Positions 10,235 through 10,765 of a stretch of 24,000 nucleotides of DNA are shown in pieces. This DNA is from Geobacter sp. OR-1 (GTDB taxonomy: Bacteria > Desulfobacterota > Desulfuromonadia > Geobacterales > DSM-12255), in contig NZ_BAZF01000011.1 in assembly GCF_000813145.1 (NCBI RefSeq), positions 110,774 through 134,773 of the forward strand, in the 5' to 3' direction. The translations under genes were made by a program, and so were the position numbers. The notes below the pieces were generated by a model, which searched no databases, was not told where the DNA came from, and was given only the letters and a program-made list of their open reading frames with translations. Numbering within the stretch: position 1 is the first letter of the stretch; each line of letters opens with the position of its first letter.

Positions 10235-10247
10235 TTGCACTTTGCAA
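10235..10247. promoter_or_regulatory. Palindromic operator candidate, TTGCACTTTGCAA (site 1, upstream of the MarR gene)
   Basis: TTGCA-N3-TGCAA is a perfect dyad. It is one of three copies in the window, and all three lie in marR/hgcA promoter regions. Confidence 0.55.
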
Positions 10248-10257
10248 TATTTTTTAC

Positions 10258-10270
10258 TTGCATTTTGCAA
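10258..10270. promoter_or_regulatory. Palindromic operator candidate, TTGCATTTTGCAA (site 2, upstream of the MarR gene)
   Basis: The site starts 23 bp after site 1, about two helical turns. It abuts the AT-rich TATAAT-like stretch at 10273..10286, which sits just before the marR SD. Confidence 0.55.
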
Positions 10271-10305
10271 ATTATAATATTATTTTCATCCCAAGGAGAT
10301 CGTAG

Positions 10306-10737
10306 ATGGAAACCGTCAGAGAACAGCTGCAGATATTCACCCGCCGTTTCGGCCTGCTGAACGCATCATGCTGCGACAGCTGCTGCGGCGAGGATGTATC
10401 GATCGTTCAGAGCCATATCCTCTTTGAGGTGCGCCGGGCCGGAAACCCCTCCATGCAGCAGGTGGCTGAAGAACTGGGGATCGACATCACCACCTTCAGC
10501 AGGCAAGTCAAAACCCTCGAAACAAGGGGACTGATCGCCAAAGAGGTATCACCCGGCGACCGCAGGGTAAACCTGCTCAAGGTGACCGACAAGGGGTTGC
10601 AGGTACTGACCCAGATCGATCGCTTCATGGAACAGAAAATCGAGCAGATATTCTCCGCCATGACCGAGTTTGAACGAATCACCGTCACCAGTTCCCTCAA
10701 ACTGCTGAACGATGCCGTAACCAAAACCTGCTGCTGA
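10306..10737 (+). CDS. MarR-family transcriptional regulator with vicinal-cysteine motifs
   Basis: 143 aa, with the SD AAGGAG. The wHTH is MQQVAEELGIDITTFSRQVKTLETRGLI, followed by the MarR wing signature GDRRVNLLKVTDKG. There is an N-terminal CCDSCC motif (residues 22-27) and a C-terminal CC (142-143). Confidence 0.85.
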   Translation: METVREQLQIFTRRFGLLNASCCDSCCGEDVSIVQSHILFEVRRAGNPSMQQVAEELGIDITTFSRQVKTLETRGLIAKEVSPGDRRVNLLKVTDKGLQVLTQIDRFMEQKIEQIFSAMTEFERITVTSSLKLLNDAVTKTCC

Positions 10738-10752
10738 AGGCCAATTACTATA

Positions 10753-10765
10753 TTGCATTTTGCAA
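10753..10765. promoter_or_regulatory. Palindromic operator candidate, TTGCATTTTGCAA (site 3, upstream of hgcA)
   Basis: Identical to site 2. It lies 88 nt upstream of the hgcA ATG, in the AT-rich marR-hgcA spacer. Confidence 0.55.

Follow-up and report, generated by a model that had tools for sequence, protein, structure and literature searches.

What controls hgcA and hgcB in Geobacter sp. OR-1? Members of the Geobacteraceae are major mercury methylators in rice paddies and freshwater sediments, and both the regulation and the native function of hgcAB are standing questions in mercury biogeochemistry. Expression of hgcAB has for the most part seemed constitutive, without a response to Hg, and to our knowledge the only hgcAB regulator that has been studied is an ArsR-like protein in one Pseudodesulfovibrio strain. 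The stretch of OR-1 DNA analysed here (the window, 24 kb) carries, in this order, the genes for a Cys-rich MarR-family regulator, HgcA, and HgcB. An earlier reading of its letters, made without database searches (the sequence-only reading), had noticed a 13-bp palindrome, TTGCA-N3-TGCAA, which occurs three times around the regulator gene, and had assigned it to a homodimeric winged helix-turn-helix (wHTH) regulator. Comparison with related loci, together with published experiments on a related protein, strongly supports the view that these three dyads are binding sites of the neighbouring MarR regulator. As the best explanation of the whole, we consider it probable that the dyads are the operators of a repressor of the MarR_ars type, which would control a single promoter for marR, hgcA, and hgcB.

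Three dyads and their counterparts in related loci

The exact dyad, TTGCANNNTGCAA (TTGCA-N3-TGCAA), is matched three times in the window, against a mean of 0.04 in 100 dinucleotide-preserving shuffles, none of which contained three. Site 1 (TTGCACTTTGCAA, 10235-10247) and site 2 (TTGCATTTTGCAA, 10258-10270) lie upstream of the regulator gene, the latter 48 bp before its ATG. Site 3 (again TTGCATTTTGCAA, 10753-10765) is intergenic, starting 16 nt past the marR stop and ending 87 nt before the hgcA ATG; none of the three is assigned a strand. The scan returned precisely the sites that the sequence-only reading had listed, the third one within the marR-hgcA spacer as described there, and agreed with its statement that the remaining ~23 kb hold no further exact copy. 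Since one-mismatch copies are absent elsewhere in the window and matches with up to two mismatches are at chance level (13 versus 9.5 expected), the three perfect sites represent the whole signal. Hereafter, site 2 is named O1 (primary operator), site 3 is named O2 (second operator), and site 1 is named O1' (auxiliary, upstream).

The window was compared with 86 related loci, the first 80 from reference genomes, with plasmid relatives found by tblastn among the later ones; they include Geobacterales, Syntrophobacterales, Nitrospirae, Paenibacillus, Fredinandcohnia, Thermincola, Bacillus, and Stenotrophomonas. Footprint counts refer to the first 80 loci, with dyads accepted at up to one mismatch, O1 being sought within 160 bp upstream of the regulator ATG and O2 at or just after the regulator stop. 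An O1 dyad was found in 79 of the 80 loci, nearly always between -45 and -51, and an O2 dyad in 73; most of the loci without O2 at this threshold have a copy with two to three mismatches in the same place. The remaining 486 kb of these loci hold 13 dyads, a background of 0.027 per kb. Judged by its position frequencies, the motif is a longer palindrome of 19 bp, T-A-n-TTGCA-nnn-TGCAA-n-T-A (consensus TAnTTGCAnnnTGCAAnTA), whose outer T/A bases are 77-94% conserved and whose central N3 is AT-rich. The dyad accompanies the regulator gene in Desulfuromonadota, Syntrophobacterales, Bacillota, and Gammaproteobacteria, at fixed positions and together with six different cargo genes. Because it goes where the regulator gene goes, whatever the phylum or the cargo gene, the dyads would be the operators of the adjacent MarR regulator, in line with the homodimeric wHTH protein proposed earlier.

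At O1, a TAnnnT motif follows the end of the dyad by 9-12 nt in 50 of 79 loci, and by exactly 10 nt in 40 of them; in the Firmicutes this -10 element is extended (TGnTATAAC). The Shine-Dalgarno sequence and the ATG come next. From this conserved position, the first half-site, TTGCAN, would be the -35 hexamer, with a spacer of 17 bp. The geometry of the 79 anchored loci places the putative operon promoter of the window on the forward strand, with the -35 box TTGCAT at 10258-10263 and the -10 box TATTTT at 10281-10286, ahead of the Shine-Dalgarno AAGGAG of the regulator gene (10293-10298, forward strand) and its ATG at 10306. In relatives, an aagGgg/AGGAGG stretch is conserved at the Shine-Dalgarno position. 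The predicted -35 box of this conserved promoter lies within O1, as do the first 7 bp of its spacer, so the regulator is very likely autoregulated. The self-contained, autoregulated regulator-operator-hgcAB module of the sequence-only reading is supported, and this module is also mobile.

That reading had placed sites 1 and 2 together at the marR promoter, which fits site 2 but not the pair as a conserved tandem. Their starts are 23 bp apart, as had been stated; this amounts to 2.2 helical turns, so that the same face of the helix, also claimed, is only approximate (~70 degrees off). The flanks of site 1 read AT-c...t-AT and differ from the TA-n...n-TA of the family consensus. Site 1 is missing in the closest relative (L081-L083, with a regulator 90% identical), where, in L081, O1 and 12 flanking bases are identical to the window and O2 is kept with one mismatch. 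Elsewhere, a second upstream site appears only in four Fredinandcohnia loci, weakly and at the same -23 offset, and tandem sites were rejected as the general architecture. Judged by the compared loci, site 1 is an OR-1-specific extra copy of the operator, lineage-specific but with a perfect core.

Outside these positions, locus L016 has two extra dyads (6757-6769 and 6802-6814), ~3.3 kb downstream of the regulator start and past hgcAB. They stand between two divergent genes, one for a nitroreductase-plus-2x[4Fe-4S] protein and one for an HxlR-family regulator, and this intergenic region may be an additional member of the regulon.

The probable second operator and transcription unit

In 44 loci, O2 lies inside the regulator open reading frame (ORF) and is translated as its C-terminal (I/V)ACC(K/N), the pattern xTT GCA TGY TGC AAr TAA providing the last five residues and the stop. 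An ORF that reads through O2 in the regulator frame stops directly after it because the T-A of the flank supplies an in-frame TAA, and this stop from the operator flank (TGCAA-n-TAA) may explain ORFs that end just after operators. On a Stenotrophomonas rhizophila plasmid (L084 2263-2331), a 22-aa ORF ends as ...ILAKCK* in the second dyad before an arsV-like oxidoreductase gene. The start of hgcA, placed by allowing read-through of the in-frame TGA in KPPC*GPP, is also close to O2 in many loci: the first in-frame ATG lies inside O2 in 22 loci (TTGC-ATG-TTGCAA, giving MLQVK...FKIKSIRK), and 23-38 nt past the first O2 base in 18 further ones (MKIKEIRK). Thus, TTGCATGTTGCAA (e.g., L005 3955-3967 and L023 3955-3967) holds both the operator and the IACCK* codons of the regulator, and in the 22 loci the hgcA ATG too, which is in another frame than the regulator and has its Shine-Dalgarno GGAGG within the regulator tail codons.

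Such an overlap could mean that the conservation of O2 is a by-product of coding, namely of the ACCK tail and the hgcA start and Shine-Dalgarno sequence, leaving O1 as the only operator, and N3 is indeed a Cys codon (TGT or TGC) in 42 of 51 cases. However, the synonymous third positions are fixed to the bases of the dyad. The codon for Ile, Val, or Leu is NTT in 44/44 loci, versus 16% in the bodies of the same genes (NNT among Ile and Val codons); in these same bodies, the Ala codon GCA, used in 38/42 coding O2 sites, accounts for 19%, and TGC, used for the second Cys in 42/42, accounts for 78%. All three positions are compatible with the dyad in 36 of the 44 loci (82%), versus 2.4% expected. 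The free Cys codon in N3 is TGT 33 times and TGC eight times, the reverse of the Cys preference of these genes, and this TGT-rich N3 agrees with the AT-rich N3 at O1. Moreover, the dyad persists where it is non-coding, as in the window, in L044, in L050, and in L081. The same is true of 22 Firmicute loci, which have it 24-31 nt past the stop and with a variable, AT-rich N3. The window regulator ends earlier (KTCC*), without an ACCK-type tail, which makes O2 intergenic there, and yet O2 is perfect. From the synonymous fixation and the retention where non-coding, it follows that O2 is a DNA element absorbed into two reading frames in one large clade. O2 is under DNA-level selection, and conservation through coding is very improbable. 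A translation-affecting RNA hairpin was also rejected, as its stem would have just 5 bp around a 3-nt loop and O1 is not transcribed. The likeliest role of O2 would be that of an auxiliary operator, acting as a roadblock or as a looping partner ~500 bp from O1.

The sequence-only reading had instead seen in site 3 the operator of a separate, regulated hgcAB promoter, with marR and hgcAB as two transcription units. Arrangements of this kind occur among the relatives: AdMarR_ars, the founding member of the MarR_ars group, binds distinct marR and arsV promoter fragments; a Stenotrophomonas plasmid has one or more dyads of its own before each gene; and in Paenibacillus a hairpin and a T-rich stretch lie over the regulator stop ahead of O2, which is abutted by a TATACT-like hexamer. 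In the window, the gap between O2 and hgcA is unusually long, and two -10-like hexamers are present, TAAAAT (10791-10796) and TATATT (10749-10754), neither of which has an acceptable -35 partner by eye. Against two units, TAnnnT stands at promoter distance from O2 in only 2/73 loci, versus 50/79 for O1. In 40 Geobacterales-type loci, O2 is in the regulator ORF and hgcA starts in O2 or at most 38 nt from its first base; there is no room for a promoter between them, and regulator and hgcAB would therefore be one transcription unit there. The terminator scan of the window found no terminator between marR and hgcA, neither scan nor eye found a convincing sigma-70-like -35/-10 pair between O2 and hgcA, and the Rfam scan of the whole window returned tRNA-Cys only, so that the spacer holds no known RNA element. 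Given the 2/73 count and the missing hexamer pair, the separate promoter was down-weighted, and we regard it as unlikely. These sequences are better read as co-transcription of hgcAB with marR from the marR promoter, O2 being an internal or auxiliary operator; the claim that hgcAB has its own promoter at site 3 is not supported. The accompanying claim, that hgcAB is regulated rather than constitutive, probably holds, since it follows from a module that carries the operators of the adjacent regulator.

It could finally be argued that the dyads are targets of another factor, such as a global regulator, or mere -35-like repeats: TTGCAN is similar to a -35 hexamer, the regions are AT-rich, and recognition by the MarR protein is here read from sequence. 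The way the dyad tracks the regulator gene in different phyla and with different cargo genes, its near absence from the remaining flanking DNA, and the occurrence of O2 where no promoter is make this explanation very improbable too. A global-regulator box was rejected on the cross-phylum linkage of dyad and regulator gene. A sigma-54 promoter (TGGCAC-N5-TTGCW) was rejected too, as none of the three sites has GG at -24, and half-sites 3 bp apart do not fit the GG-N10-GC that sigma-54 needs.

The regulator and its MarR_ars relatives

The regulator gene (10306-10737, forward strand) encodes a predicted MarR-family repressor of the MarR_ars type, of 143 aa, which matches Pfam MarR_2 (8.8e-13; 48.7 bits, cut-off 27) and MarR (46.9 bits, cut-off 24.6); its PDB sequence matches are all MarR-family proteins (72/72). 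Pfam and NCBIfam profiles confirm the MarR-family, hgcA, and hgcB gene calls made from the sequence alone. An ArsR/SmtB-type identity was rejected, since the best matches are MarR models, the protein reaches 19.7 bits on the ArsR metalloregulator model NF033788, where the cut-off is 55, and there is no Pfam HTH_5 match. The protein, 100% identical to one from Geobacter sp. OR-1, has the cysteines C22 C23 x x C26 C27 G, plus C142 and C143 at its C-terminus. In an alignment of 20 homologs, C22, C23, C26, C27, and G28 are invariant and C-terminal CC pairs are frequent. Among eight aligned members, a CC occupies the place of C142 and C143 in seven, the exception being L023, whose only C-terminal CC is in its ACCN tail. 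Across the wider family, at least one Cys pair is kept at the N-terminal position before the wHTH. Close homologs of the regulator number in the hundreds, and they occur in metagenome-assembled genomes (MAGs) labelled Verrucomicrobia, Nitrospirae, and Dongiaceae as well as Geobacterales.

The AlphaFold2 model of the protein (predicted local distance difference test score, pLDDT, 87) has the MarR fold, with predicted helices at 4-25, 33-45, 50-57, 61-73, 95-117, and 121-142 and a wing at 77-93. Foldseek matches it to the MarR structures 3bpx and 3vod with template modelling (TM) scores of 0.82-0.85, and its superposition on E. coli MarR gives 0.80-0.85. In the model, CCxxCC is located where helix 1 ends and in the loop behind it, and the terminal CC where helix 6 ends; in MarR structures, this is the area of dimerisation and ligand binding. 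E. coli MarR, a homodimeric wHTH protein, binds short perfect palindromes of the TTGCC-N2-GGCAA type at marO, where two sites are found at its own promoter, one of them over the -35/-10 region. The window differs from marO in half-site and spacing (TTGCA-N3-TGCAA), in the place of its second site, at the gene's 3' end and ~500 bp distant, and in the thiolate cluster proposed for its protein, where E. coli MarR responds to phenolics and Cu-driven oxidation.

The cargo genes of the relatives lead to arsenic. In loci of non-methylators, which lack hgcAB, the same regulator family, with O1 and O2, precedes arsM in Thermincola (NF008823, 4e-96), an ArsP-type permease gene in Fredinandcohnia (PF03773, 5e-51), and a gene for a 465-aa flavoprotein, followed by arsR-arsB, in Paenibacillus. 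On a plasmid of Paenibacillus sp. Cedars, marR is followed by arsN1 and has a perfect O1 at -50, while a Stenotrophomonas plasmid carries an NAD(P)/FAD (arsV-like) oxidoreductase gene, marR, and arsRBCDA, with perfect dyads before the oxidoreductase gene (two sites) and before marR. In B. cereus pBc10987, the dyads are variant ones, the first at -45 and the second at +26 from the regulator stop. In Paenibacillus (e.g., L057 ~3935-3960), the regulator end CVPPK* falls within a conserved hairpin, (G)CCTCC-AAAATAAT-GGAGG(C); a T-rich stretch comes next, and then O2. The hairpin may act as an attenuator, or as a weak terminator, that separates the regulator from the arsV-like cargo.

A Geobacter MAG (JACOUQ01, hgcAB locus L010) holds at a second locus, L004, a paralogous regulator gene with O1 and a coding O2 (IAKCK*). 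There, at ~3946-4760, a vestigial hgcA-like start, MKIKEWRKYG*, precedes a MerB-family ORF (PF03243, 1.4e-18), whose two in-frame TGAs align with the catalytic cysteines of MerB2 (PDB 5c17). This ORF is a candidate for an organometal lyase with two selenocysteines that is subject to the same operator system.

The MarR_ars group was founded on AdMarR_ars (QVQ28260.1), a protein of Achromobacter sp. As-55 (Yu et al.), which represses arsV, binds the marR and arsV promoter fragments in electrophoretic mobility shift assays (EMSA), is released by As(III) or Sb(III), and needs Cys36, Cys37, and Cys157 (bioRxiv 10.1101/2021.08.12.456183). The same paper describes neighbourhoods of MarR_ars genes with arsV, arsN, and arsP, including a marR-arsV pair in Paenibacillus; it specifies no operator sequence and says nothing of hgcAB (bioRxiv 10.1101/2021.08.12.456183). 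Several likenesses connect the window protein with this group, AdMarR_ars being compared by its description. In both, the wHTH comes just after a vicinal Cys pair and there is a Cys at the C-terminus, and the ...RICCYDVSV... encoded by the AdMarR_ars mutagenic primers has a counterpart in CCGEDVS of the window protein. Both have DNA sites at their own gene and before the adjacent cargo gene, predicted ones in the case of the window, and homologs 40-57% identical to the window protein, which carry the same dyad, adjoin arsM, arsP, arsN1, arsV-like, and arsRBCDA genes. However, the window regulator has hgcAB as its cargo, and no ars gene was observed beside it; members of the hgcAB clade carry two vicinal pairs (CCxxCC) and often an ACCK tail as well; and O2 overlaps coding sequence in most Geobacterales loci. 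By Cys pattern, shared operator, and shared neighbourhoods, the window regulator would belong with MarR_ars, where we file it as an hgcAB-linked sister clade because its cargo is not an ars gene.

A regulator next to hgcAB is not new in itself. In P. mercurii ND132, the ArsR-like ArsR2 (DND132_1054) is co-transcribed with hgcAB, which responds to arsenic; the same work names OR-1 among arsenate-respiring organisms (bioRxiv 10.1101/2022.10.17.512643). As in the window, a Cys-rich metalloregulator gene lies directly upstream of hgcAB, in the order sensor-repressor, then hgcAB, but ArsR2 belongs to the ArsR/SmtB HTH_5 family and the window regulator to the MarR family. To judge by their sequences, this is convergent recruitment of an arsenic-type sensor and not homology. 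A "putative transcriptional regulator" directly upstream of hgcAB was reported in 112 genomes, with apparent horizontal co-transfer (McDaniel et al. 2020, PMC7438021), and in Geobacter daltonii and Dethiobacter a MarR gene was noted upstream of hgcA (PMC10349881). The regulator of McDaniel et al. can be likened to that of the window, by description, in gene position and in a spread of homologs that fits horizontal transfer. Both reports (PMC7438021, PMC10349881) give gene presence only and describe no operator, Cys motif, or link to MarR_ars. The ND132 work likewise describes no operator, CCxxCC motif, or MarR_ars connection, and neither an operator nor a link between MarR, hgcAB, and arsenic turned up in searches of the literature.

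The hgcAB genes and their proposed control

The corrinoid protein gene hgcA (10853-12127, forward strand; NCBIfam NF040863, 1.5e-135) encodes a Cys-rich N-terminal extension, with the CC of PPCCGP at 11072-11077, and its N-terminus, MNIKNIRS, is homologous to the MKIKEIRK of relatives. It is followed by hgcB (12142-12432, forward strand; NCBIfam NF040864, 1.9e-39), for a 2x[4Fe-4S] ferredoxin with a C-terminal CC. A 12-bp hairpin at 12477-12506, found in the terminator scan and bidirectional, is the probable operon terminator, shared with the tRNA-Cys(GCA) gene (12514-12588, reverse strand; Rfam) that converges on hgcB. In 35 of 53 related hgcA genes, an in-frame TGA (KPPC*GPP) stands at the second Cys of PPCCGP (e.g., L023 4094, L024 4091, and L035 4073), and all 35 have a GC-rich hairpin, CUCCGCC-GGC-GGCGGAG, 14 nt downstream of the UGA, which is absent from the Cys versions; OR-1 hgcA is of the Cys form. 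The CU selenocysteine of HgcA has already been published by Haft (bioRxiv 10.1101/2022.07.06.499078). Separate small ORFs or a frameshift in the hgcA 5' regions were rejected, as these are continuous through the in-frame TGA, a selenocysteine codon. In the closest relative (L081 3518-4021), a 4HBT-family thioesterase gene is located between O2 and hgcA, and O2 remains with the 3' end of the regulator gene, not with hgcA.

As for the mechanism, we infer that a homodimeric MarR_ars-type repressor, with a thiolate cluster made of CCxxCC and the C-terminal CC, would bind the dyads flanking its own gene. A dimer on O1 would cover the -35 box and the upstream part of the spacer of the single marR-hgcA-hgcB promoter, shutting off both the regulator and hgcAB. 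In OR-1, site 1 would take a second dimer, giving tighter occupancy and extending the protected region upstream. O2 would add repression of the cargo, either by roadblock or by looping between O1 and O2 (~500 bp), and hgcAB would in this way be held more tightly than the regulator. Upon the arrival of a thiophilic metal(loid) at the Cys cluster, the repressor would be released from the DNA and hgcAB would be induced. By analogy with AdMarR_ars, our best guess for the inducer is As(III) or Sb(III), with methylarsenite or Hg(II) also possible.

Several points weigh against this explanation. The 80 loci share phylogeny, so that their counts exceed the number of independent events. The operator assignment in the hgcAB-linked members comes from comparison, and what ties the dyad to MarR_ars are the loci of relatives, not the DNA bound by AdMarR_ars in EMSA. 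A consensus sigma-70 scan of 9900-12900 returned no promoter, missing that at O1 because its hexamers are weak; its placement is suggested by the conserved geometry across loci. The 87-nt gap between O2 and hgcA in the window is ~65 nt longer than in relatives, which leaves some room for an internal hgcAB promoter specific to OR-1. Finally, members from Stenotrophomonas, the Paenibacillus plasmid, and Bacillus have one Cys pair, and the extra pair of the hgcAB-linked clade (CCxxCC) means that its ligand may differ.

This type of system is already known; new are its hgcAB-linked member, the operator, and the connection with MarR_ars. For hgcAB of the Geobacteraceae, the analysis provides a concrete cis-element, the 19-bp TAnTTGCAnnnTGCAAnTA at two fixed positions, and a candidate sensor, one of whose relatives has been characterised by experiment and responds to As(III)/Sb(III). 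It is also, by comparison of loci, the first operator definition for MarR_ars-type regulators; the predicted operator would serve this subfamily generally, and its consensus allows regulon prediction in any genome. That a MarR-type sensor in Geobacter and an ArsR-type one in Pseudodesulfovibrio would each have been recruited upstream of hgcAB strengthens the link between arsenic and mercury.

More tentatively, hgcAB might be an inducible operon in the Geobacteraceae and in the lineages that acquired it, with a MarR_ars sensor and As(III), Sb(III), methylarsenite, or Hg(II) as inducer, and HgcAB might belong to an ancient organo-metal(loid) regulon. If so, it would share sensor and operator with arsM, arsP, arsN, and arsV elsewhere, and with the MerB-like putative selenoprotein of the Geobacter MAG. 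O2 would be a rare triple-use sequence, serving as operator, as the C-terminal Cys-Cys codons of the regulator, and as the hgcA start codon, and co-contaminating arsenic would control methylmercury production in paddy soils and sediments.

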